Part shown: positions 17,122-26,567 of the stretch, piece by piece
Layout: every line of letters begins with the position of its first letter
Numbering within the stretch: the stretch's first letter is position 1
NCBI GenBank assembly: GCA_964396265.1
Contig: CAYNEM010000006.1
Span: 60,789 to 124,788, forward strand
Direction of reading: 5' to 3'
Origin: an uncultured Methanomassiliicoccales archaeon
GTDB lineage: Archaea; Thermoplasmatota; Thermoplasmata; RBG-16-68-12; EA-27
DNA: 64,000 nucleotides
The notes under the pieces: model-generated
Told to the model about the DNA's origin: nothing
Databases searched by the model: none
Seen by the model: only the letters and a program-made list of their open reading frames with translations
Program-made: the position numbers and the translations under genes

Positions 17122-17463
17122 ATGATGTGGATGAACAGCGGCAACATCAAGGAAGGCCGGATGAAGGAATTCCAGGAGTGGACGAAGAAGAACGAGAAGC
17201 TCCTGCAGAAGAACGCCCCGTCGGGATGGACGTATCGCGGCACGTACGCGTACGTCCTCGGCTTCGGCCGGTTCGGCGTGGCGGGAATGTGGGAATGCGA
17301 GAAGTACGGCGACTTCGACAACCTGCGCAACCACGACGACAAGAACTGGATGCGCCTGAACGAGGAGATGTCCGACTTCTTCGATCAGTCCGCGAGCGAA
17401 GGCGTGCTCCTGCGAGAGATCGGTGACACGAAGATCTTGGAACCGAAGAAACCACGACCGTAG
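17122..17463 (+). CDS. hypothetical protein (lower-GC, island-associated)
   Basis: 113-aa ORF, K/E/W-rich, with a GGGAGG Shine-Dalgarno-like motif about 8 nt upstream. Lies in a locally lower-GC stretch next to the recombinase genes. Confidence 0.5.
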   Translation: MMWMNSGNIKEGRMKEFQEWTKKNEKLLQKNAPSGWTYRGTYAYVLGFGRFGVAGMWECEKYGDFDNLRNHDDKNWMRLNEEMSDFFDQSASEGVLLREIGDTKILEPKKPRP

Positions 17464-17787
17464 CCCGGCTCGTTCGTGACAGGACGTGACACATTGAGGC
17501 CAGTTTAGCTCCAGCCTAGACTATTCATCGCTGTCACGTATCCGCTTGACTAGTCAAGCTTCCACCTAGAACGCCGTCGAAACCCGCTTTTCGGGCGGTT
17601 CGACCGGGTGTTCTCGCAACGATCGCGCGATCCCCGCTCCGGACCGCTCTCATGCTCCCGCGGGCACCTCGTCGCCGGAACGCGAGCTCCGCGCACACGA
17701 GTGGCGACCATGAGCATCCGCAGCATGGAAACCCTCACTTCGGTTTGTCAAGACGGGGGAGGTCGAAACGGTCTACCGTTTCGAACG

Positions 17788-18474
17788 CTACTTTCCCCTC
17801 GACGGGGGCTTGAACAGGGCGGCGTCACGCTTCTGGTCTGGCCTCCGGATGCGCTTCTCCATCTCGACCTGCACCTGGGAGAACTTGTCCTGGTCCACGA
17901 TCGGGCGGTGCTTCCCGTTGCGGAGTCCCCCGTCCTGGCGGATGTACCCGCAGTACAGCGGGTTCCTCAGGATGTTCGCGATCGTCTGGCTTTGCCATCG
18001 CTTCCCGGTCTTTGTGCGGATCTCCGCGCGGTTGAGCTCCTCGCAGACTTTTGCGATGCCACGGCCCTCGAGATACATCTCAAAGATCAGGCCGACCGTG
18101 CGCGCCTCGTTCGGGTTCACCTTGAGCGCACCGTCGCGCGTCTCGTACCCGTAAGGCCGCGTGAACTCCTCGAACCCCAGGCCCGAGCCGCCCGAACCGT
18201 GTGACAAGATACCACGTATCATGGTCTTGTAGTCGAGCTTGCGCTCGACGCACAGCTTGCGCACCGCCTCGTCCTCGTCTTTCGCACTGAAGTGCGAGAG
18301 CATCTCCTTCGTCGACCCGAATCGCAGGAAGATCTCCCGGAAGACGACGGGGTCCTTCGGAGCTGCCTCGCGACACGCGCGGCACAGGACGGGGGCCCGC
18401 ATGTCCTCAATCGGGTGTTCCTGAAGGCCGCTCCGGCTCCAGCATCGCTCGCACCGGTCGTTCCCCACGGTCAC
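17788..18474 (-). CDS. serine-recombinase-family protein lacking the catalytic resolvase domain (zinc ribbon + recombinase domain)
   Basis: N-terminal CxxC..CxxC (CERCWS..CRACRE), then the 'recombinase' domain motif RPYGYETRDGALKVNPNEARTVGLIFEMYLEG..IAKVCEELN..GIRTKTGKRWQSQTIANILRNPLYCGYI. No YxRVSTxxQ catalytic motif. Confidence 0.75.
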   Translation of the reverse strand: MTVGNDRCERCWSRSGLQEHPIEDMRAPVLCRACREAAPKDPVVFREIFLRFGSTKEMLSHFSAKDEDEAVRKLCVERKLDYKTMIRGILSHGSGGSGLGFEEFTRPYGYETRDGALKVNPNEARTVGLIFEMYLEGRGIAKVCEELNRAEIRTKTGKRWQSQTIANILRNPLYCGYIRQDGGLRNGKHRPIVDQDKFSQVQVEMEKRIRRPDQKRDAALFKPPSRGK

Positions 18475-19286
18475 GCCTCCGCCGCCAAACGATCAGCCTC
18501 GATCGCGAGCACGACCTTTCTCCCTTGAACAGCGTCCCACAATCGGTGATCGACGATCGGCTGATGGGAATCGTCGCGGACGCTCTCGTCCCATCGGATC
18601 TTCCCGACGTAGACCGGATTGTGCAGCATGTAGCGGATCCCGGACTTGCTCCAGCGGCGGCCCCGCTGCGAAGGGATCCCATCGTCGTTGAGTTTGGCGG
18701 CGATCGCATGGAAGGCGCGCCCCTGGGCGTATTCCTCGAAAATGCCTCGGACGATGCGCGCCTCCGCCTCGTCCACGATGAGCGCACCGTCCACGTATCG
18801 ATACCCGAAGGGGCGGCGGAACCCGTTGAGCCCTTCCCCGGCCTTGTGCTTCTGCGCCATCCCCATGTACACGCGCTCCCCGATCTGCTCGGACTCGAGC
18901 TGCGCGATGCGCTGGATGATGTCCATGACGAAGCGCCCCATGGCGGTGGAGGTGTCGAGGGACTCCGTCGCGCTCACGAAGTCCTTGCCCCACTTCCCCA
19001 GGTCGTCCATCATCCCCATGAAGTTCCGCGAGTTGCGGTGGATCCGGTCCATCTTGATCACGAGCATCTTGTCCCAGGCATCTCGGTCCGCAAGCATCCG
19101 CTGGTACGCGGGACGGTTCACGTTCCTCCCGGTGTGGCCGTCGTCCACGTACTCCTGCGCGACGGTCCAGCCCTGGGCGCGGCAGAATGCATGGAGACGC
19201 TCGCTCTGCGCGTCGAGGGAGAAGCCCTCCTTCGCCTGATCCTCCGTGGATACGCGGGTGTAGAGTGCGACGCGTTGAGCTGCCAT
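18471..19286 (-). CDS. serine recombinase (resolvase/invertase catalytic domain + recombinase domain)
   Basis: Catalytic-Ser motif VALYTRVSTEDQ, then the recombinase-domain motif (RPFGYRYVDGALIVDEAEARIVRGIFEEY..GIPSQRGRRWSKSGIRYMLHNPVYVG). Its stop overlaps the downstream gene start by 4 nt. Confidence 0.88.
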   Translation of the reverse strand: MAAQRVALYTRVSTEDQAKEGFSLDAQSERLHAFCRAQGWTVAQEYVDDGHTGRNVNRPAYQRMLADRDAWDKMLVIKMDRIHRNSRNFMGMMDDLGKWGKDFVSATESLDTSTAMGRFVMDIIQRIAQLESEQIGERVYMGMAQKHKAGEGLNGFRRPFGYRYVDGALIVDEAEARIVRGIFEEYAQGRAFHAIAAKLNDDGIPSQRGRRWSKSGIRYMLHNPVYVGKIRWDESVRDDSHQPIVDHRLWDAVQGRKVVLAIEADRLAAEA

Positions 19287-19352
19287 CTAGGAATCCTTCT
19301 CCTGCGGGAGCGTCGATACGCGCGCGTAGAGTGCGACTCGCTGAGTGCCCAT
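19287..19352 (-). pseudogene. duplicated 5' fragment of the serine recombinase gene (21 codons then a stop)
   Basis: Translates MGTQRVALYARVSTLPQEKDS* against MAAQRVALYTRVSTEDQ.. of the full gene immediately downstream. A ~30-bp direct repeat (GTAGAGTGCGAC.CG.TGAG.TGCCCAT) spans both start codons. Confidence 0.6.
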
Positions 19353-19626
19353 CCCGGGCCCGCATTTGCGCGTCGGCACTTAAAAGTGAGTCCGCAAGAG
19401 CACGCGATGCCCCAGAGTGAGTTCGAACCATGCCCCACATCGTGCTACATCGTGGCGAGTGACGGACCGTGTTTAGATTCAAGCTTGAATCGCCTCGTTC
19501 CAAACGCGAACTGCGAGACTAGTCTTGGATGCACCTAAACCGACCGCATCCGCGGTACAACGTCCCACCCTGGGCAACGATCGGGCCTGCCCGTTCCGCG
19601 GCCCTCGTTCGCTAGGCCCCCGGCTG

Positions 19627-19761
19627 ATGAACGAAAAAGAAAAGCAAGGCCCCGCGCTCGGCGCGTTCTGCAAGCTGGATTGGCGGCTCTTCGACCCGGC
19701 GAACCTCGAGGGGCGGTTCGATGGAGAGCGGTACTTGGAAGCTGTCCCGGGAATGAAGTGA
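19627..19761 (+). CDS. small conserved ORF A (~44 aa), paralog of ORF B
   Basis: MNEKEKQGPALGAFCKLDWRLFDPANLEGRFDGERYLEAVPGMK. It shares LDWRLFDxAxLxxRFxGxRYxE with ORF B at 20632. The two copies differ mostly at synonymous sites. Confidence 0.5.
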   Translation: MNEKEKQGPALGAFCKLDWRLFDPANLEGRFDGERYLEAVPGMK

Positions 19762-19802
19762 CGGACGGTCGCTGAGGTCCGGCTGATTACATTTAATTAC
19801 AT

Positions 19803-19810
19803 TTATATAC
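19803..19810 (+). promoter_or_regulatory. TATA box (TTTATATA) for the UPF0175/PIN operon, preceded by tandem ATTACATTTA repeats
   Basis: AT-rich motif 30 nt upstream of ATG 19833 in an otherwise GC-rich genome. Implies a leaderless transcript. Confidence 0.6.
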
Positions 19811-19832
19811 AAGTGTAACGCTGGCAACCTCC

Positions 19833-20132
19833 ATGAAGGTCATCACCGTCCGGATCCCCGACGAGGATGCCGAGTCCCTGGAGTCCATCGAGCGCGCCGA
19901 GAAGGTGGACCGCGCGGCCGCGGTCCGGAAGCTCCTCTCCGAGGGCATCAACCGGTGGAAGGTGCAGAGGGCCCTGGATCTCCTCCGCCAGCATCGGGTG
20001 ACCCTGCGCACAGCGGCGCGCATGGCGGGCCTCTCCTACGGGGAGATGTTCGATCTGGCGGGCCGGGCGGACATCACGACAGGCTATTCCCTTCAGGACC
20101 TCCGACAGGACCTGGGGGAGCCGGACCGGTGA
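19833..20132 (+). CDS. UPF0175-family antitoxin-like protein
   Basis: 99 aa. C-terminal HTH (VTLRTAARMAGLSYGEMFDLAGRADI) typical of UPF0175. Strong TATA box TTTATATA at 19803-19810, 30 nt upstream of the ATG. Its stop overlaps the start of the PIN gene. Confidence 0.75.
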   Translation: MKVITVRIPDEDAESLESIERAEKVDRAAAVRKLLSEGINRWKVQRALDLLRQHRVTLRTAARMAGLSYGEMFDLAGRADITTGYSLQDLRQDLGEPDR

Positions 20133-20632
20133 TCGTCGATTCCTCCGCCCTCATCCCGCTCAGCCGCATCGGCCGCCTCGACCTGCTTCGCCGGTTGTAC
20201 CGCCCTGTGAGGACGACGCGGGACGTCTACCGCGAGTGCGTCGAGGAGGGGGCAGCCCGGCCCGGAGCCGACGCCCTTCGCGAGGCCTGCGAGCGGTGGC
20301 TTGAGGTCGTGGAGCCCCCCCGCGGCGCCGCGCGACTGGCCGCCGCCGAGGGGATCGAGCTAGCCGACGCCTCGCTCCTGCTCCTGTGCGAGGAGGCGAA
20401 GGACGCCCTGCTCACGAACGACGACCACCTGATGCGCGTGGCCCGGGCGCGCGGGATCCGGGGGCGCTGGCTCACGGGCGCCGTCCTCGCCGCCACACGG
20501 AGGGGACTGTTGACCCCCGCGGAGGCGAAGGAGCTCGTGACCCGGCTCGTCGGCGAGGGACTGTGGCTCTCCCCCCAGGTCTTCGTGGCAGTGCTGGACG
20601 CAATTGAGGCGATGACCGCTTCCCCGCGGTGA
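20129..20632 (+). CDS. PIN-domain toxin (DUF3368-like), partner of the UPF0175 gene
   Basis: GTG start overlapping the antitoxin stop as GTGA. VIVDSSALIPL.. and ..LLTNDDHLMRVA.. acidic residues fit a PIN nuclease of the type usually paired with UPF0175. Confidence 0.7.
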   Translation: MIVDSSALIPLSRIGRLDLLRRLYRPVRTTRDVYRECVEEGAARPGADALREACERWLEVVEPPRGAARLAAAEGIELADASLLLLCEEAKDALLTNDDHLMRVARARGIRGRWLTGAVLAATRRGLLTPAEAKELVTRLVGEGLWLSPQVFVAVLDAIEAMTASPR

Positions 20633-20772
20633 TGGCAGGTGAACGCAGAGAGCTATTGGACTGGCGACTGTTTGATTCCGCGACACTGTCCCGGCGGTTC
20701 AACGGGGACAGGTACGTCGAGCGCCTGAAGGGCCTGAGGCCGTCCCCGGACGAGGTTCGGCGAAAGGCTTAG
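20632..20772 (+). CDS. small conserved ORF B (~46 aa), paralog of ORF A
   Basis: MAGERRELLDWRLFDSATLSRRFNGDRYVERLKGLRPSPDEVRRKA. Its ATG overlaps the PIN gene stop as TGATG. Confidence 0.5.
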   Translation: MAGERRELLDWRLFDSATLSRRFNGDRYVERLKGLRPSPDEVRRKA

Positions 20773-20784
20773 GGCCCAGATGGG

Positions 20785-21138
20785 TCAGCCTTTGAGCCAC
20801 TTGGAGGCCCTCTTTGCGTCCCGCTCGAGTTCCTCGGGCGAATACCGGAAGTAGGGGATGCCCCGCTTGGCGGCCTCGTCGACCATTTCGTAGATACTCA
20901 CGCCAGCGTAGGCGGCAGCCCCGCCAAGGCTGAACTTGCCATGGAGGTACTTCTCCAGCGCGCGTTCCATTCGCAGCCGCCGGAGGCCCTCGTCCACCGC
21001 CCGCCGCGCCACGTCGGATCGGAGGAGGCGGAGGTCCGCGGCCAGCTCATCGATCTCCTCTAGGACATGCTCGTCCTTGCGGATCTGGAGGTTCTTCACA
21101 GGGCGATGTAATGACTTGTCATGTGATAAACTTTCCAT
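20785..21138 (-). CDS. UPF0175-like HTH protein (orphan antitoxin-like)
   Basis: 117 aa from ATG 21138. C-terminal ..KFSLGGAAAYAGVSIYEMVDEAAKRGIPY.. resembles the UPF0175 HTH. The longer 266-aa ORF upstream of it is low-complexity and unlikely to be translated. Confidence 0.5.
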   Translation of the reverse strand: MESLSHDKSLHRPVKNLQIRKDEHVLEEIDELAADLRLLRSDVARRAVDEGLRRLRMERALEKYLHGKFSLGGAAAYAGVSIYEMVDEAAKRGIPYFRYSPEELERDAKRASKWLKG

Positions 21139-21287
21139 CAGACGAGCCTCAGTGGAGGTTCCACCCTCCGCCGCGGGAAAGGAAGGAAGGGGAACAGGAC
21201 CCCCGGCGGAGGAACGTGCGCCAGGTCCAAGGCATGGGATTCTGCCATCGATGTATTTAAATGGCATTATGGCATAGTCTACCGCCG

Positions 21288-21554
21288 ATGGCGGAGCTCG
21301 TTTCGGTGGACCGCGCAGGGCGCGTCGTGCTGCCCAAGAAGATCCGAGACGCCTTGGGTATCGACGAGCGGACGAAGCTCCTCGTCGCGGTCGGTGAGCA
21401 CGGTCGACTGGTGCTCCAGAAAGTGGATGTGGAGGCCATCGCGGGTCGGCTGGAGAAGGAACTCGCCGGGAAGGACGTGGATGCGATTGTCCGGAAAGTC
21501 CGGAGGGAGATGAAGGCCCTTGCCCGCCGCCGGTATCCGGACCTTCTTGCTTGA
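21288..21554 (+). CDS. vapB: AbrB/SpoVT-type antitoxin (VapB-like)
   Basis: MAELVSVDRAGRVVLPKKIRDALGI.. swapped-hairpin AbrB motif. TATA-like TATTTAAAT at 21254-21262. Confidence 0.8.
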   Translation: MAELVSVDRAGRVVLPKKIRDALGIDERTKLLVAVGEHGRLVLQKVDVEAIAGRLEKELAGKDVDAIVRKVRREMKALARRRYPDLLA

Positions 21555-21951
21555 CACGAACGTCTTCGTGGCAGCGGTGAAGCACCCGGCGAGGGAGACC
21601 GCCACGCTCCGTCTCCTCCTCGAGGTCCTTCGGCGCGACGACGTCGCTCTCGTCGGGAACGACCTGTGGCTCGAAGAGATGCTCCGGTATGCCGAGGCCT
21701 TCCGTTCCGAGACCGCCTCCCAGCTCGTCGCCGCCTTAGTCGAGAAGACGCGGTTCGTTCGCGTCGACGCAAGCTTTCGGGCCGTCTGCCGACGGTTCAT
21801 GACCACTCCCGACCCCGCGGATGTCCTCCACGCCGCGACCTGCCTGCAGGAACGGGCGGTCCTCGTCACGAACGATCGGCACTTCGACCGGATCCGGAAG
21901 GAGGGCATCGTCGAGGTCTGGGACATCGCGAAAGCCATTCACTCCCTCTGA
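21520..21951 (+). CDS. vapC: PIN-domain toxin VapC
   Basis: FLLDTNVFVAA.. and ..VTNDRHF.. match conserved PIN acidic residues. Overlaps the 3' end of vapB, so its exact start is uncertain. Confidence 0.8.
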   Translation: MPAAGIRTFLLDTNVFVAAVKHPARETATLRLLLEVLRRDDVALVGNDLWLEEMLRYAEAFRSETASQLVAALVEKTRFVRVDASFRAVCRRFMTTPDPADVLHAATCLQERAVLVTNDRHFDRIRKEGIVEVWDIAKAIHSL

Positions 21952-22178
21952 GTCCCGCCGTTAGGTCGATGGACGAGTGCGAGCCGTAGCTGGACTAGCC
22001 GACGTTCTGCAAGGTGGAGTGGCAGCTCTTGACCCCGTCGACCTGACGCCCGTCCCGAAAGCTGGCATCGGATCCCCGATGGGGCGAGGCGACTTCTCCG
22101 CGACATGTCGCGCGCATCCCTTTCGACAGAGAAACCCAACCAGGCTCGGCGGCGACGAGCCGCCAGAAGGACCCAACC

Positions 22179-22637
22179 ATGCGAACGAACGAAGAAGGTG
22201 TGTCTCCGGTGATTGCGACCATCCTGATGGTGGCGATCACCGTGGTGTTGGCGGCGGTGCTGTACGTGATGGTGACGAACCTGATCGACGACCCCGGCGG
22301 ACGGCGACCCATCGTCACCCTGGACTCGATGGGATGCGATGCGGTTGAGTGCCGGGGGCGCGTGACGGCTGCCTCGTCGCCCTCGGTCGATCTGGGCCGG
22401 TTCCGCGTGACCGTCCTCGCCGACGGGAACGCCCTGATCCTCCCGACGGAACTTGTGGCCGGCGTGGACATCAGCGGAGGGGGCCTCACGCTCCGATACA
22501 CGGATCTTGGTGCCGAGGGGAAGGTGACGGGCGGCGACACGTTCCGCATCACGGGGATCTCGGCGGGGGTGGAGTACGAGGTCGTTCTCTTGTGGAACGA
22601 CGGAACGGGAATCCAGTCCGTGACGTTCAGCACCTAG
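22179..22637 (+). CDS. archaeal type IV pilin-like protein (class III signal peptide, DUF1628-type N-terminus)
   Basis: MRTNEEGVSPVIATILMVAITVVLAAVLYVMV is a typical prepilin-peptidase (PibD/FlaK) substrate N-terminus (..G/VSPVIA..). Confidence 0.8.
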   Translation: MRTNEEGVSPVIATILMVAITVVLAAVLYVMVTNLIDDPGGRRPIVTLDSMGCDAVECRGRVTAASSPSVDLGRFRVTVLADGNALILPTELVAGVDISGGGLTLRYTDLGAEGKVTGGDTFRITGISAGVEYEVVLLWNDGTGIQSVTFST

Positions 22638-22664
22638 GCGGGAGCCCCCCGCCTCCTCTTTTTT

Positions 22665-24953
22665 TCAATTCCCCCGATCCACCAACAGCCGCTGGACCTC
22701 GTCGCGGTCCCTGCGCGCCCCGAGCCCTTCGAAGATCGCGAGCGCTCGCCGCAGGTGCTCGAGGCCACGGGCATCCGTGCGGAGGCGCCCGAGGTTGCGG
22801 TGCACCTCCCCCATCTGCCAGAGGAAGCCGAGCTTCTCGGACAGCACGAGGCTCCGCTCGTAGAACCTGGCGGCGTTCGCCGCATCCCCCTTCCGCCGGT
22901 ACGCCTCCCCGATGTTGTTGTACAGGATCGCGACCGTGCGGTGGTCGCCCAGCTCCTCGCTCAGCCGGAGCGCGTCCGCGTAGTCCGCGAGCGCGCCGTC
23001 GACGTCGTCCCGCTGCCACCGCAGGATTCCGAGGTTGTTGAGCGCGCCCGCGACCCCGGCCGCATCGCCGACGGCCTCGTACGCCTCCCGGCTGCGGCGG
23101 TACAGGTCCGCGGCGGCGTCGAGGTTCCCCGCCTGCCATTCGAGGATGCCCAATGCGTTGAGGATGCGCGCCACGATCGACTGGTCGGCGTCGCCGACGA
23201 TCCCCAGTGCGCGCTCGAACGAGGCGCGCGCGACATCGAAGTCCCCTTGGCGGTATTCGATCACGCCGAGCTCGAGGACGCCGCGCGCCTCGCCTCGCCG
23301 GTCGCCAAGATCCTCCGCGAGGGAGCGCGCCTCGTCGAAGCTCTCCCGGGCGCCGGGCCATTCGCCGCGGACGGACTGGAGCTCGCCTCGCAGGAGGAGC
23401 AGGGGGACGCGGCCCGCGGGCTCCAGCGCCCGCAGGTCGAACGAGGCGAGGAGCTTCATCACGTCGTTCTGGAGGCCTTTGGCGGCGAGGGAGCGGCCGA
23501 TTCCGCCGAGGAGCGCGGCCGCGTCCTTCGTGCGTCCCGCCTGGATGAGGTGGTACAGCATCTCGACGCGCGCCTCGGGGTCCGCGAGGGCCTCGTAGTG
23601 CGACGCCGCGAGCGCGTGCAACCGGAGGCGCTGGGGCGTGGTCAGGCGTGAATAGAAGAACTCCCGGAGGAGGTCGTGCATGTCCGCAGTGCCGCCGCCA
23701 ATCCGGACGAGGGACCGCTCCGCAAGCGCCTCGAGGCGACCGACGTCGCTGACCTCTGGCGCGACGGCCTCGAGGGCGACGGGATGGCGGTGCACCGCCA
23801 GCGAGGCGACGATATCCTGTTCTCGTGCATCAAGCTTCGAGGCGACCTCCTCGCGCAGGTACGCGCGCACGTCCGTCATTCCCTGACCGCCCGAGGCCGC
23901 GACGAGCTCGAGGAACAGGGGATGGCCCTTCGTCGCCACCACGAGTTCCGCGCGCCGGTCTGCGGGTACGCCCCGATCTTGCAGGAGCCGGAGGGCGCTC
24001 GCCTCATCGAGGCCGCCAAACTCGAGCTCGACCACGAGGCCCTCGAGGCTGACCTCCCGCCGCGAGTAGAACACGGGGATCCGACGCCCGGCGATCACGA
24101 GCTTCGCGCGCGTCCCCCCGAGCACGCGAACGAGCTGGGTCAGCAGGCCGGCCAACCCCTCCGGAGCCTTGTGGACATCGTCCAGGAAGGCAATCATGGG
24201 GAGGTCGCGGACCTCCGCGGCGATCCGGGTCAGCATCTCCTCGACGGGGACCGTCCGCTGCACGTCGATTGTGCGCCCGACCTCCCGCAGTTTGGCGGCG
24301 ATCCCCGCGAGGACCTGCTCCGTGGTCGTCCACTCCGTCACGCGGAACCATACGGTGACGGCGGAATCGGCGCCCTCCGCGAGCCGCGCGAGGAAGGCGG
24401 TCTTGCCGACGCCTGGCAGTCCCCGGACCGTTAAGCACACGGCCGGTGACTTGAGGAACTCGCGCGCTGCCGCCAATTCCCGGGACCGCCCGTAGAAGCG
24501 CCTGGGGGTCGCGGTCGTCGGGGGCGCACGCGCGCGGGAGGCGTCAAGATCGAGTACACCGTCCGTCGCCGCCAATGCGAGGTCGAGGAGCGTCGTTCCC
24601 ATGGGGGCGAGCGGCAGAGATTGCGAGAGTTCGGCGATCTGTTCCGTGCCGCCGGAACGCACGCGCACACGCGTGGCGGCGATCCGCGTCCGCAAGGCCT
24701 CCGCCGCCTGGGCCCCCGCGGGGGTCAGCACGTACACCTTGCGCCGCCGGCCGCCCGCCTCCACGTGGGCCATCCGTTTCGTGACGTGCCCGCGCGTCTC
24801 CATCTCGCCGAGGACGGCGGAGACGTGGCTGCGGCGCACGCTGACCGCGAGGGCGATCCCCTGCTGCGTCATCTCGAACGGGACCTCGAAGCGCTCCCCG
24901 CGGCGCACGTACGCGAGGAGGTGGAGCAGGATGCGCTCCTCCGCGGTCAGCAT
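22665..24953 (-). CDS. STAND-class NTPase with N-terminal winged-helix, central NB-ARC-like AAA ATPase and C-terminal TPR repeats
   Basis: N-terminal MarR/ArsR-like wHTH (LLHLLAYVRRGERFEVP..). Walker A GLPGVGKTAFLARL and Walker B MIAFLDDVH. C-terminal TPR units (ALNNLGILRWQRDDVDGALADYADALRLSEELGD..). Confidence 0.85.
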   Translation of the reverse strand: MLTAEERILLHLLAYVRRGERFEVPFEMTQQGIALAVSVRRSHVSAVLGEMETRGHVTKRMAHVEAGGRRRKVYVLTPAGAQAAEALRTRIAATRVRVRSGGTEQIAELSQSLPLAPMGTTLLDLALAATDGVLDLDASRARAPPTTATPRRFYGRSRELAAAREFLKSPAVCLTVRGLPGVGKTAFLARLAEGADSAVTVWFRVTEWTTTEQVLAGIAAKLREVGRTIDVQRTVPVEEMLTRIAAEVRDLPMIAFLDDVHKAPEGLAGLLTQLVRVLGGTRAKLVIAGRRIPVFYSRREVSLEGLVVELEFGGLDEASALRLLQDRGVPADRRAELVVATKGHPLFLELVAASGGQGMTDVRAYLREEVASKLDAREQDIVASLAVHRHPVALEAVAPEVSDVGRLEALAERSLVRIGGGTADMHDLLREFFYSRLTTPQRLRLHALAASHYEALADPEARVEMLYHLIQAGRTKDAAALLGGIGRSLAAKGLQNDVMKLLASFDLRALEPAGRVPLLLLRGELQSVRGEWPGARESFDEARSLAEDLGDRRGEARGVLELGVIEYRQGDFDVARASFERALGIVGDADQSIVARILNALGILEWQAGNLDAAADLYRRSREAYEAVGDAAGVAGALNNLGILRWQRDDVDGALADYADALRLSEELGDHRTVAILYNNIGEAYRRKGDAANAARFYERSLVLSEKLGFLWQMGEVHRNLGRLRTDARGLEHLRRALAIFEGLGARRDRDEVQRLLVDRGN

Positions 24954-25514: not shown

Positions 25515-25640
25515 CCAACGGACCGCCCCACGGTTGGTTTCCCAGTGGATGTCGCTCTCCAACCTTACACCTTGGATTGCGACCCCATGGCATGAGGCGG
25601 CTTGAATTCGTCCGAAAAGGGTTAGAACCCGTGCGGCCGT

Positions 25641-26567
25641 GTGGCGCCGATGGTCTTCGCGAACCGACTGCGCGACTTCCCTCTGGTCCTTGAGGTCGTG
25701 CCCCCCCACGGCCGCGCGAGCGACAAGGCCGTCCGGAGCCTCGTGAAGAAGGTCCACGAGGCCGTCGGCACGATCCCCCGACTCGACGCCGTGAACATCC
25801 CGGAGATCCTGGACGAGAACCACGCGGGGATGCCGTTCTATCGGAACATGGACCCGCGGCGGTTCGCGGGCCTGCTGAACCTCGAGGGTCCCCTCGAGCC
25901 GATCGTGAACAAGGTCGTCGTCCACATGGAGGGCGTGGGGGCGTTCGACACGTGGGTCAAGGAGTCCCTCGACGCGTACGGCCTGCGGAACTTCGTCCTC
26001 GTCGGCGGGGGGAGCAGCCGCGTCACCTACCCGGGGCCGACGGTGGCGGGGGCGAACGAGAGGCTCGCGCACCTCACCGAGGCGTACAAGGGAGTCGTGG
26101 GGGGAAACATCGCGATCCCGGAGCGGAGGGACGAGGTGTCCCGCCTCGTCGGGAAGACGCGCACGGGCAGCCGGTTCTTCACGACGCAGGTGCTGTTCGA
26201 GGCGGAGCCGATCGCGACGACGCTGCGGCACTACGGCGAGGCGTGCCACTACGAGGGCGTGCACCCCGCGACGGTGCTCCTCAGCTTCGCGCCCGTGTCG
26301 GACTACCAGGACGTAGAGTTCCTCGCATGGCTCGGGGCGACCGTGACGCCGGAGACGGAGGAGCGCCTGCTCCAGCGCGGGGTTCGCCCGGGCGTCGCGT
26401 CGCTCCAGGTGGCCCTCAAGATCCTCACGAAGATCCGCGACGCGGTCGAGGGCTCGCCACACCCGGTGCCGCTCGGCGCGAACGTCGAGCAGATCGCGAC
26501 GCACAACTTCGAGCTGGCGGTGAAAATGGCGCAGGAGTTCCTCGCGTGGAAGGACGCGAAGGTCTAA
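25641..26567 (+). CDS. methylenetetrahydrofolate reductase (MetF)-like protein
   Basis: 308 aa, TIM-barrel-like. ..LVLEVVPPHGRASDKAVRSLVKKVHEAVGTIPRLDAVNIPE.. resembles the MTHFR family start. Moderate confidence without a search. Confidence 0.5.
   Translation: MAPMVFANRLRDFPLVLEVVPPHGRASDKAVRSLVKKVHEAVGTIPRLDAVNIPEILDENHAGMPFYRNMDPRRFAGLLNLEGPLEPIVNKVVVHMEGVGAFDTWVKESLDAYGLRNFVLVGGGSSRVTYPGPTVAGANERLAHLTEAYKGVVGGNIAIPERRDEVSRLVGKTRTGSRFFTTQVLFEAEPIATTLRHYGEACHYEGVHPATVLLSFAPVSDYQDVEFLAWLGATVTPETEERLLQRGVRPGVASLQVALKILTKIRDAVEGSPHPVPLGANVEQIATHNFELAVKMAQEFLAWKDAKV

Follow-up and report, generated by a model that had tools for sequence, protein, structure and literature searches.

Short paired ORFs around an archaeal toxin–antitoxin cassette are probably stranded 3' ends of a lost Thermoplasmata gene

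Background

Several toxin–antitoxin (TA) systems have three components, among them the toxin–antitoxin–chaperone (TAC), omega-epsilon-zeta and paaR-paaA-parE systems, and in these the third gene is a member of a conserved family and is found together with its TA pair. Homology-facilitated illegitimate recombination has been described for naturally transformable bacteria; we know of no demonstration of it in archaea of the lineage considered here. Archaeal vapBC pairs occur in variable regions and have been proposed to protect the local DNA from loss (PMC3119797).

The window analyzed here is a 64-kb stretch of DNA from a Thermoplasmata lineage in which two short ORFs, A and B, bracket a TA pair (TA1). 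An earlier note on this DNA had read the two ORFs as a real peptide under purifying selection and had suggested a third TA component or a small regulatory or immunity peptide. The features of the region are:

17788-19286, - strand: two overlapping serine-recombinase genes (Pfam Resolvase and Recombinase domains)
19627-19761, + strand: ORF A, translation MNEKEKQGPALGAFCKLDWRLFDPANLEGRFDGERYLEAVPGMK, a predicted 44-aa product
19781-19832, + strand: AT-rich, putatively promoter/operator-like region of TA pair 1, within the block conserved with L067, L065 and L072
19833-20132, + strand: TA pair 1 antitoxin, RHH + UPF0175 (Pfam PF03683, PF01402)
20129-20632, + strand: TA pair 1 toxin, PIN-like, DUF3368 type (Pfam PF11848, PF20698 and PF01850, all weak matches below gathering thresholds)
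20632 (ATG) or 20629 (GTG) to 20772, + strand: ORF B, translation (M)MAGERRELLDWRLFDSATLSRRFNGDRYVERLKGLRPSPDEVRRKA, a predicted 46- or 47-aa product
20785-21102, - strand: solitary RHH + UPF0175 antitoxin-like gene (PF03683, E = 1.7e-12)
21234-21960, + strand: AbrB/MazE-PIN cassette (PF04014, PF01850), with the antitoxin at 21261-21554 and the toxin at 21520-21951

Results

The similarity between the two ORFs (LDWRLFDxAxLxxRFxGxRYxE) that the earlier note had pointed out is borne out. Within the core (19675-19740 against 20656-20721), 14 of 22 residues and 43 of 66 bases are identical, and a tblastn search with ORF A against the six frames of the window recovers ORF B at E = 7e-9, the second-best match (22005-22040, E = 0.03) having turned out to be a third, decayed copy. 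The differences are mainly synonymous, as had also been stated: a synonymous difference is present in 10 of the 14 conserved codons of the core, and over 28 codons pS is 0.79 and pN 0.26 (Nei-Gojobori). The nucleotide similarity begins at 19663/19664 in A and at 20656/20657 in B, stops near the stop codons and was not found beyond the coding frame; in the coding core the two copies are ~65% identical, again mostly with differences at synonymous sites. The pS and pN values and the confinement of the identity to the reading frame support the earlier judgment that no recent DNA duplication is involved, and a larger duplicated block with non-coding sequence is contradicted by the halt of the similarity at the edges of the frame. 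The described placement of the ORFs is also accurate. The sequence GTGATG at 20629-20634 makes the start of ORF B overlap the PIN stop, and ORF A ends 71 nt before the antitoxin ATG, just upstream of the putative promoter region, with an AT-rich stretch between them that holds a direct repeat of TTACATTTA (19787-19795 and 19797-19805) and, 24 nt before the ATG, TTTATATA (19802-19809). A Pfam scan of ORFs A and B returned no family, a comparison of 19300-21200 with a plasmid collection gave no match, and a word-indexed protein search with ORF B retrieved only ORF B itself, its relatives emerging from an exhaustive profile search.

Those relatives are not short peptides. The motif common to A and B corresponds to the last ~35 residues of a conserved ~400-aa Thermoplasmata protein, here called X, and closes ~400-aa ORFs in L003, L004 and 60 distinct attached cases. 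The earlier note had named a lack of homologues elsewhere as a point against its reading; relatives do exist, as the C-termini of ~400-aa X proteins. The X family comprises 105 clusters at E <= 1e-58 and has no match in Pfam or NCBIfam. A structure model of X (pLDDT 93.3, pTM 0.91), in which residues 361-390 score 94-97, suggests that the tail is an integral part of the X fold and not a free peptide. The predicted fold consists of two tandem wHTH plus Lrp/AsnC-like units, with NirDL (4ch7; E = 1e-5, TM 0.41/0.52) and the Lrp/AsnC proteins 2dbb and 2pmh as top Foldseek matches, a likeness that, as judged from the model, is one of fold only. Trp382 is invariant among 64 aligned X proteins and in 60 of 60 attached tails. 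The gene for X is usually paired divergently with one for a ~480-aa secreted repeat protein. High-scoring repeat proteins were also inspected as candidate relatives (P0107, P0115) and were rejected as unrelated to X, only a short RF.GER-like repeat having matched. The common X neighborhood (gltX, aminotransferase) shows no synteny with the window, which represents a different type of X locus, as in L011. A count made with a limited query set placed TA genes within 2 kb downstream of eight of 39 intact X genes; adjacency to TA genes is therefore a trait of the clade near the window and not of the X family as a whole.

Three X tails were identified in the window:

19663-19761, + strand: X-tail relic A, X residues ~365-396 plus stop, forming the 3' two-thirds of ORF A
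20656-20772, + strand: X-tail relic B, X residues ~369-406 plus stop, forming the 3' part of ORF B (20629-20772)
21999-22046, + strand: X-tail relic C, decayed, PTFCKVEWQLLTPST and then a stop

A hidden Markov model of the tail matches A, B and C at E = 1e-12, 6e-12 and 0.003, respectively, and neither tblastn nor a model of the X body detected that body in any frame of the 64-kb window. The remainder of each ORF comes from elsewhere. The first 12 codons of ORF A derive from a 118-nt spacer (19546-19662) for which a search for its origin gave no match anywhere, and the first 8-9 codons of ORF B (20629-20655) belong to the conserved 3' flanking sequence of the TA1 cassette, MMAGERRE matching VMAVERRG in L067, where the flank forms a 23-codon ORF without a tail. 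Tail A is 89% identical in nucleotides to the tail of the intact X in L067 (26 of 32 amino acids) and equally to a decayed tail in L096; tail B ends in ...YVERLKGLRPSPDEVRRKA, as compared with ...YVERLKGLRPSSDEARRKA in P0019. Trp382 is replaced by Gly in A, by Arg in B and by Ser in the orphan tail of L011. Tail C, which has two further in-frame stops just upstream, is 82% identical to tail A over 39 nt and aligns with the second tail of L011, both being located at the corresponding point ahead of the pilin gene. The frames of A and B are uninterrupted and have start codons, and the dN/dS of relic against functional orthologue, 0.41-0.49 over 32-38 codons (a small sample of low power), compares with 0.11-0.16 for the neighboring recombinase and PIN genes. 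Values of 0.4-0.5 over so few codons may reflect some residual constraint on A and B.

Three versions of the locus could be compared. L011, a related contig, is the orthologous locus with an intact X and has flanks collinear with the window at 86-87% identity. Window positions 20657-20776 correspond to L011 7013-7132, the 3' end of the intact X, at 84% identity and through the stop codon, whereas L011 3492-7012, comprising two genes and X codons 1 to ~368, is absent from the window, leaving 120 nt of X as tail B. The order in L011 is intact X, TA cassette and a second, orphan X tail. The third version, L098, has the tail only. Tail A and TA1 have their counterpart in another genome: window 19664-20653 matches L067 4927-5906 at 88.7%, the tail there being part of a full X, and no tail lies downstream of the L067 pair. 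Each of A and B is thus nearer to a relative in another genome (A 89%, B 84%) than to its neighbor (65%). X also occurs as tandem paralogues and, downstream of TA1, as a second copy truncated at its 5' end (L028 and L067).

Orthologues of the TA1 antitoxin in L067, L065 and L072 share 81-87% amino acid identity, the toxin has a dN/dS of 0.16 against L067, and PF11848 is recorded for the identical toxin product in L001. The solitary antitoxin-like gene at 20785-21102, convergent on tail B, stands without a toxin partner; in L015-L018 a DUF3368 PIN gene follows its homologues, which are 59% identical to it. The AbrB-PIN cassette has sharply conserved borders, with an identical left border (ATGGGATTCTGCCATC) in L079, L067 and L065; the block is 91% identical in L079 and 78% in L067 and L065, and its context differs in each. 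On the left, the serine-recombinase genes (dN/dS 0.11-0.16) occupy the same relative position in L011 (87% nucleotide identity) and L098 (78% amino acid identity). A 60-nt repeat lies at 19228-19353.

Orphan tails are not confined to the window, and ~20 further clusters were found in public data. Where called as ORFs they are 44 to 133 aa long with unrelated N-termini, and some are frameshifted or lack F384 or the DW pair. The earlier note had asked whether homologues consistently adjoin UPF0175 and PIN genes. They do not: the tail is normally attached to X, and the orphans adjoin three or more unrelated TA families (UPF0175-DUF3368, RHH-PIN, AbrB-PIN) or none. RHH-PIN pairs accompany the orphans of L011 and L087/88, AbrB-PIN pairs those of L079 and L084, and another antitoxin-PIN pair that of L098; in L096 the sequence that follows the tail shows no match to the TA1 cassette of the window. 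TA1-type UPF0175-DUF3368 pairs also occur with no neighboring tail ORF, in L007 and L015-L018. The points in X at which the orphans start are scattered (~136, 328, 338, 347, 354, 359, 365, 369, 380) and thus do not indicate one crossover point. Within a search pattern that could recover only fragments including residues 367-376, the starts cluster in the last ~40-80 codons of X, and A and C begin within a few codons of B; this clustering might point to a zone favored for recombination instead of trimming at random.

Discussion

On the basis of these data, we think it likely that ORFs A and B are chimeric, accidental ORFs whose conserved parts are the stranded 3' ends of a gene X lost from this locus. 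Homology that runs through the stop codon, the missing body, positional orthology and the signs of relaxed constraint all point to A and B being C-terminal relics of X. As judged from the sequence comparisons, tail B is the end of the resident X, the positional orthologue of the 3' end of the intact X in L011; tail A and TA pair 1 form one block, which elsewhere (L067) is joined to a complete X; and tail C is a decayed older copy. The tails seem to have no role in the TA pair. The region from the recombinase genes to the pilin gene is a plastic hot spot with gain, loss and exchange of self-contained TA cassettes, which consist of a promoter and two genes; the serine-recombinase genes form its conserved left border and are, for the relics, context only.

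As to how the relics and duplications arose, we infer that each tail diverged inside a different functional X, either a xenologue or a tandem paralogue, and the excess of synonymous differences between A and B would stem from this divergence; the tails having been inherited from functional X genes, the synonymous signal would be inherited from X as well. Of the purifying selection on a real peptide proposed in the earlier note, selection at the amino acid level therefore stands, in keeping with the pS and pN values, and the peptide falls, as there probably never was a ~45-aa protein. X-plus-TA segments would have inserted or recombined beside the resident X, placing copies side by side, and one-sided-homology (illegitimate) joining is a plausible route for such juxtaposition; the tandem paralogues and the 5'-truncated second X of L028 and L067 are plausible intermediates. 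Later deletions would have trimmed the redundant X copies, a short piece wedged against the TA operons and promoters surviving because a deletion running into an addictive TA module would be counter-selected. No recent duplication event with clean junctions was found, and at the one junction inspected the micro-homology is at most ~3 nt, which is uninformative. A long target-site duplication was considered as an origin and rejected, since A and B differ mainly synonymously and each is closer to the X gene of another genome.

The remaining explanations differ in what they make of the same tails. A chance match, or a recent local duplication of DNA including non-coding sequence, has nothing in its favor except the shortness of the match and is hardly credible given the six-frame E-value, the restriction of identity to the frame with its third-position pattern and the greater proximity of each tail to another genome than to its neighbor. 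That A, B or both encode functional micro-proteins, the C-terminus of X having been exapted as a regulator, an immunity peptide or a third TA component and ORF B being translationally coupled to the PIN toxin, would fit the two open frames with their start codons, the GTG/ATG of ORF B overlapping the PIN stop, the same GTGA overlap where tail ORFs follow PIN genes in L011 and L072, and the listing of such ORFs by gene callers in public data. The overlap, however, belongs to the context of the PIN stop and also exists in L067, where no tail follows, and the equivalents in L072, L011 and L098 all differ in length, N-terminus and starting point in X. The invariant Trp is lost in both A and B, stops break tail C, the tails associate with X loci and not with any one TA family, the TA1-type pairs of L007 and L015-L018 lack an adjoining tail ORF, and a high-confidence prediction for the segment exists only in the context of the whole X protein. 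We therefore regard a micro-protein as very unlikely; the third TA component suggested in the earlier note is in particular at odds with a peptide that is the C-terminus of X, occurs with several TA families, does not follow the pair in L067 and has lost its Trp.

More can be said for the possibility that the tails serve a system for capturing TA cassettes at the 3' end of X, as its recombination sites or as portable homology arms, with the conserved serine recombinases or some unseen integrase acting site-specifically or with homologous crossovers taking place in the tails. Such a system would be reminiscent of gene ends displaced at the att sites of integrative elements, or of integron cassettes with attC borders. 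The ancestry of the blocks switches exactly at tail edges (19664, 20657, 20776), cassettes have been swapped between conserved tails B and C or their L011 counterparts, tail-TA-tail arrays recur in L011, L072 and L084, in three related genomes the locus is flanked by a serine-recombinase gene, and the orphan tails are both unusually common (the ~20 further clusters) and clustered in their starts near the 3' end of X. Against this, the tails share no core, the longest exact runs being 8 nt (A/B), 11 nt (A/C) and 11 nt (the L011 pair); paired tails are 47-57% identical over the compared stretches including flanks, and their starts vary from X residue ~136 to ~380. Tail DNA folds no better than shuffled sequence (z = +0.31, +0.22 and -1.46), with no attC-like or hairpin structure, no integrase lies between the tails, which enclose TA genes only, and the AbrB-PIN cassette keeps the same sharp borders without a flanking tail in L067 and L065. 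Conservation of the tails is at the codon and not the DNA level, most X loci have no recombinase nearby, and the fold predicted for X is that of an Lrp/AsnC-type protein and not of a recombinase. We consider such a role for the tails unlikely, and the specific proposal that the 3' end of X beside the serine-recombinase pair is a dedicated capture site for TA cassettes, with the tails as site-specific or homology-driven handles, rather improbable. Were the capture-site reading true, genomes would assemble and trade tail-TA arrays through a mechanism as yet undescribed for archaeal TA mobility.

On present evidence, ordinary genomic debris shielded by addictive neighbors is the best reading of the relics. 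For annotation, stranded gene ends of this kind mean that a signal of synonymous differences between small ORFs can come from a larger parent gene, and such an inherited signal should not count as evidence for a new micro-protein or TA partner. They also draw attention to X, an uncharacterized, well-conserved Thermoplasmata family with a confidently predicted double wHTH/Lrp-like fold, whose locus is a zone where compact TA cassettes repeatedly land and turn over, leaving 3' relics of X behind, three of them in the window. If the relics mark a specific insertion mechanism, this trail would offer a handle on how archaeal TA cassettes move.

Comparison with known systems

Three-component TA systems resemble this locus in having a small extra ORF in or near the TA operon, with start/stop overlap; here, in contrast, the extra ORF represents part of an unrelated 400-aa protein, is variable in length and start, and accompanies several TA families while failing to follow the L067 pair. 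Integron cassette arrays, which often include TA cassettes, share the compact tandem cassettes, a recurring element and a recombinase gene at the edge. In the present locus, by contrast, the recurring element is a coding fragment in decay that lacks attC-like structure, promoters are part of the cassettes, the border genes are serine recombinases and not IntI, and this border is missing at most X loci.

The variable regions rich in vapBC in Sulfolobales, where gene gain and loss bring together diverse PIN-type TA pairs with antitoxins of the AbrB, RHH/CopG or other types, are close in content, and the pairs there have been proposed to stabilize local DNA (PMC3119797). The present case differs in lineage (Thermoplasmata) and in that the cassettes sit at one conserved gene and are punctuated by its relics, an arrangement of which a limited literature search found no description.

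Displacement of gene ends at the att sites of integrative elements (tRNA or protein genes whose 3' ends become duplicated, attL/attR) is similar in several ways: an orphan 3' fragment in the same orientation lies downstream of the insert, an intact gene is found upstream of it where the locus is unreduced (L011, L067), serial insertions yield several fragments, and TA genes are typical cargo. It differs in that the present locus lacks an identical core repeat (8-11 nt at most), the fragment starts vary, the bracketed DNA contains no integrase, the paired tails are ~65% identical in the coding core with mostly synonymous differences, and the target gene itself is gone from the window. Homology-facilitated illegitimate recombination, finally, would join a donor gene and its cargo by micro-homology inside the recipient's copy and, as seen here, would leave a partial second copy near the end of the homologous anchor.

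Two small ORFs carry the C-terminus of a larger protein

ORFs A and B are the 3'-end relics of an uncharacterised conserved gene, stranded in a hot spot for toxin-antitoxin (TA) cassettes. They lie on either side of TA pair 1, an RHH + UPF0175 antitoxin (19833-20132) followed by a PIN-like DUF3368-type toxin (20129-20632), in the following setting.

Features in and at the border of the variable region (window positions)
17788-19286, minus strand: two overlapping serine-recombinase genes, at the border of the variable region
19627-19761: ORF A, as first described
20629 (GTG) or 20632 (ATG) to 20772: ORF B, as first described
20785-21102, minus strand: RHH + UPF0175 antitoxin-like gene with no toxin partner
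21234 to 21953/60: AbrB-PIN cassette
21999-22046: tail C, a decayed third copy of the shared peptide, PTFCKVEWQLLTPST then a stop, with more in-frame stops just upstream

The similarity between the ORFs, which have LDWRLFDxAxLxxRFxGxRYxE in common, is real and not fortuitous: when ORF A was searched against all six frames of the window, ORF B came up at E = 7e-9 and no other match beat E = 0.03, and the 22-codon core has 14 identical residues and 43 of 66 identical bases. Synonymous changes affect 10 of the 14 conserved codons, and over 28 aligned codons pS is 0.79 and pN 0.26; both a chance match and a recent DNA duplication are excluded. The start of ORF B overlaps the PIN gene stop, and the antitoxin ATG lies 71 nt past the end of ORF A, beyond an AT-rich segment in which TTACATTTA is directly repeated and a TATA-like box occurs. 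Neither ORF has a match in Pfam; in a word-indexed search, ORF B matched nothing but its own sequence, on two short contigs that are identical to the window.

When one genome per species was scanned with the pattern, the motif turned up in two archaeal MAGs, closing a much longer ORF in both; on contig L003 (2940-4169), a 409-aa protein (P0002) ends ...FQPSYCKLDWRLFDPHEVAWRFDGEGYLERLKGL.... The motif is the conserved C-terminus of a family, here called X, which comprises at least 105 clusters and occurs in Thermoplasmata and related MAGs. Its members, all annotated as hypothetical, are about 390-430 aa long and 45-70% identical, and neither Pfam nor NCBIfam, both scanned, has a model for them. 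W372, F375 and W382 do not vary among 64 aligned members, and the confident structure prediction from this alignment (pLDDT 93.3, pTM 0.91) has two units in tandem, both consisting of a winged helix and, after it, a ferredoxin-like α/β domain. In the PDB it most resembles the fused Lrp/AsnC-like siroheme decarboxylase NirDL (4ch7) and Lrp/AsnC regulators; judging from the model, this is a distant resemblance of fold only. Since residues 361-390 are modelled at pLDDT 94-97, the tail, as we call the C-terminal or 3' end of X, appears to be part of the globular protein. X is usually found in a divergent pair with a ~480-aa secreted repeat protein, and some contigs encode two full paralogues, each with its divergent 480-aa gene (L028, 57% amino-acid identity).

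Some X proteins, among them P0070 (434 aa), have a C-terminal extension, DVRPLKVSPG...IREEREHHHE..PRRKRRA (L032 near 7120). Because it corresponds to the last ~35 residues of the RHH antitoxin encoded after X in L011 (7160-7465), the extended forms look like deletion products in which X was fused to the end of an antitoxin gene. In a Euryarchaeota MAG (L004 near 345-347), X has an in-frame stop at about codon 108 with the remaining frame open, which could reflect a pseudogene, a sequencing error or recoding.

Origin of the individual tails

The body of X is absent from the window in all frames. Contig L011 is collinear with the window over three blocks.

Collinear blocks of L011 and the window
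L011 1072-3491, window 17122-19545, 87%: two serine-recombinase genes
L011 7013-7132, window 20657-20776, 84%: last 116 nt of X and its stop, equal to tail B
L011 8143-10762, window 22149-24776, 86%: pilin-like gene and large gene

The first two blocks are separated in L011 by genes of 157 and 480 aa and by X codons 1 to ~368, and in the window by 1.1 kb with ORF A and the UPF0175-PIN pair. The L011 protein (P0019) ends ...VDWRLFDPVSASWRFDGDGYVERLKGLRPSSDEARRKA, that is, as ORF B up to the last residue. Given this collinearity with an intact X ending at tail B, tail B is the remnant of the resident X gene. Past its intact X, L011 has an RHH-PIN cassette and then a 58-aa ORF that is a second X tail, PFVAVQDKRATLNLFRPSYCKLDWRLFDPLELASSFDGDAYIGQAKALPKAS; tail C, before the pilin gene, occupies the corresponding position, and 39 nt of it align with tail A at 82% identity. 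That pilin gene (22179-22637), which adjoins the variable region on the right, codes for a protein with an archaeal class III signal peptide (Pilin_N-type) and is fast-evolving relative to L011 (dN/dS 0.42).

Window 19664-20653, which spans tail A, the TA promoter region and the antitoxin and toxin genes, is 88.7% identical to L067 4927-5906. In L067, as in L065, the tail (PFCRLDWRLFDPVNLEWRFDGARYLEALPGMK) ends a complete X gene. In L067 no tail follows the TA pair, and beyond its 3' flank and unrelated sequence is a second X copy starting at about residue 136. Because this tail-less flank, VMAVERRG..., corresponds to MMAGERRE of ORF B, the latter is a chimera in which the 3' flank of the TA cassette is joined to the resident X tail. 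ORF A is also chimeric: a 118-nt spacer, for which a search for the source gave no match, precedes an X tail that is foreign or paralogous. L072, at about 80% identity, also has the order tail-TA1-tail, but with other X start positions and other N-termini.

The proposal in the earlier note that the ORFs encode a functional micro-protein or a third TA component is very improbable: a conserved ORF architecture is lacking, the association is with X and not with a particular TA family, TA1 exists in L067 without a downstream tail, and invariant residues have been lost. Its argument for homology and for protein-level selection holds; the selection, however, acted on X, whose C-terminus the ORFs carry.

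Orphan tails and TA cassettes at other loci

A metagenome scan with the tail alignment returned 79 loci, in which HMM classification distinguished 60 attached tails (joined to an X body) and 14 orphan tails (lacking one), all distinct. Position 382 is Trp in 60/60 attached tails, Gly in tail A, Arg in tail B and Ser in the L011 orphan; other orphans have lost F384, contain stops or are fused to other ORFs. The orphans begin between X residues ~328 and ~380, except for one that begins at ~136. With A+B as query, an exhaustive profile search of 1.84 billion representatives recovered ORFs A and B, X proteins and about 20 further small-ORF clusters (49-133 aa), with the X tail at the end, unrelated N-termini and, in several, decayed motifs. 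Multi-stretch repeat proteins were also matched; the inspected ones are unrelated. At L091 1559-2057, an unrelated ORF has an X tail fused to it in frame, beside ORFs whose amino-acid composition looks unlike that of the archaeal loci; this may be an assembly chimera or a fragment acquired by transfer.

Orphan tails adjoin RHH-PIN (L011, L087/88), AbrB-PIN (L079, L084), an 81-aa antitoxin with PIN (L098) or a convergent PIN pair (L036). In L096, X appears to have been lost by deletion from between the 480-aa gene and a tail that has decayed. A third version of the window neighbourhood is found in L098 (recombinase 78% identical in amino acids, downstream gene matching window 25638-26558), where X is likewise only a tail, behind a different TA cassette.

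The TA cassettes behave as discrete units. AbrB-PIN has the same sharp borders in the window, L079 (398-1116), L067 (1317-2043) and L065 (608-1334), four genomic contexts of which two have no adjacent tails; it starts with ATGGGATTCTGCCATC (a palindrome-like operator and TTTAA box), ends 2-9 nt past the toxin stop, and resembles a discrete mobile unit in which no mobility gene can be seen. The antitoxin-like gene at 20785-21102 is 59% identical to its homologues in L015-L018, which have a DUF3368 PIN after them; in the window, the expected toxin site is filled by tail B and TA pair 1.

One recombinase at the border has Resolvase and Recombinase domains, the other a Zn-ribbon and Recombinase without a catalytic domain; both are under purifying selection relative to L011 (dN/dS 0.11-0.16), and a homologue occupies the same border in L098. 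The 5' end of the recombinase gene 18471-19286 (minus strand) is duplicated as a 60-nt direct repeat (19228-19353; 66-nt spacing, 75% identity), which creates a mini-ORF (19287-19379, minus strand; MGTQRVALYARVST...) in a region 81% conserved in L011; the repeat could be an old att-type or promoter duplication.

That the tails serve as att/attC-like sites or homology arms is an unlikely reading, even though block boundaries coincide with tail edges, cassettes are swapped between conserved tails, and recombinase genes stand at the border in three related genomes. The tails have no common core (exact runs between them reach only 8-11 nt) and no detected DNA structure, the crossover point is not fixed, arrays are without an internal integrase, and most X loci have no recombinase.

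Formation of the relics

The synonymous excess between A and B is real but, to judge from the comparisons, inherited. Tail A is 89% identical to the L067 tail and tail B 84% to that of L011, whereas A and B are only 65% identical; tail C is ~87% identical to several tails elsewhere, closer than to its neighbour. Each tail being nearer to the functional X of another genome than to the adjacent tail, they diverged within functional genes and were juxtaposed later; a long target-site duplication is ruled out on the same grounds. Constraint was relaxed after stranding, with the invariant Trp lost in A and B and stops in C; dN/dS of the relics versus functional orthologues, over few codons, is 0.41-0.49, compared with 0.11-0.16 for the recombinase and PIN neighbours.

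Segments of X plus TA, from relatives or tandem paralogues, would have been joined next to or into the resident X, and the redundant copy then whittled by deletions; L067, whose second X is 5'-truncated, represents a plausible intermediate. Since archaeal vapBC pairs have been proposed to protect local DNA (PMC3119797), short 3' pieces may persist where adjoining TA operons or promoters could not be deleted without toxin release; tail B is wedged between the PIN stop and the stop of the convergent antitoxin gene, 12 nt away. As genomic debris, the relics are of a familiar kind, here in a new instance; two by-products of modest interest are the X family and the repeatedly found arrays of tails and TA cassettes.
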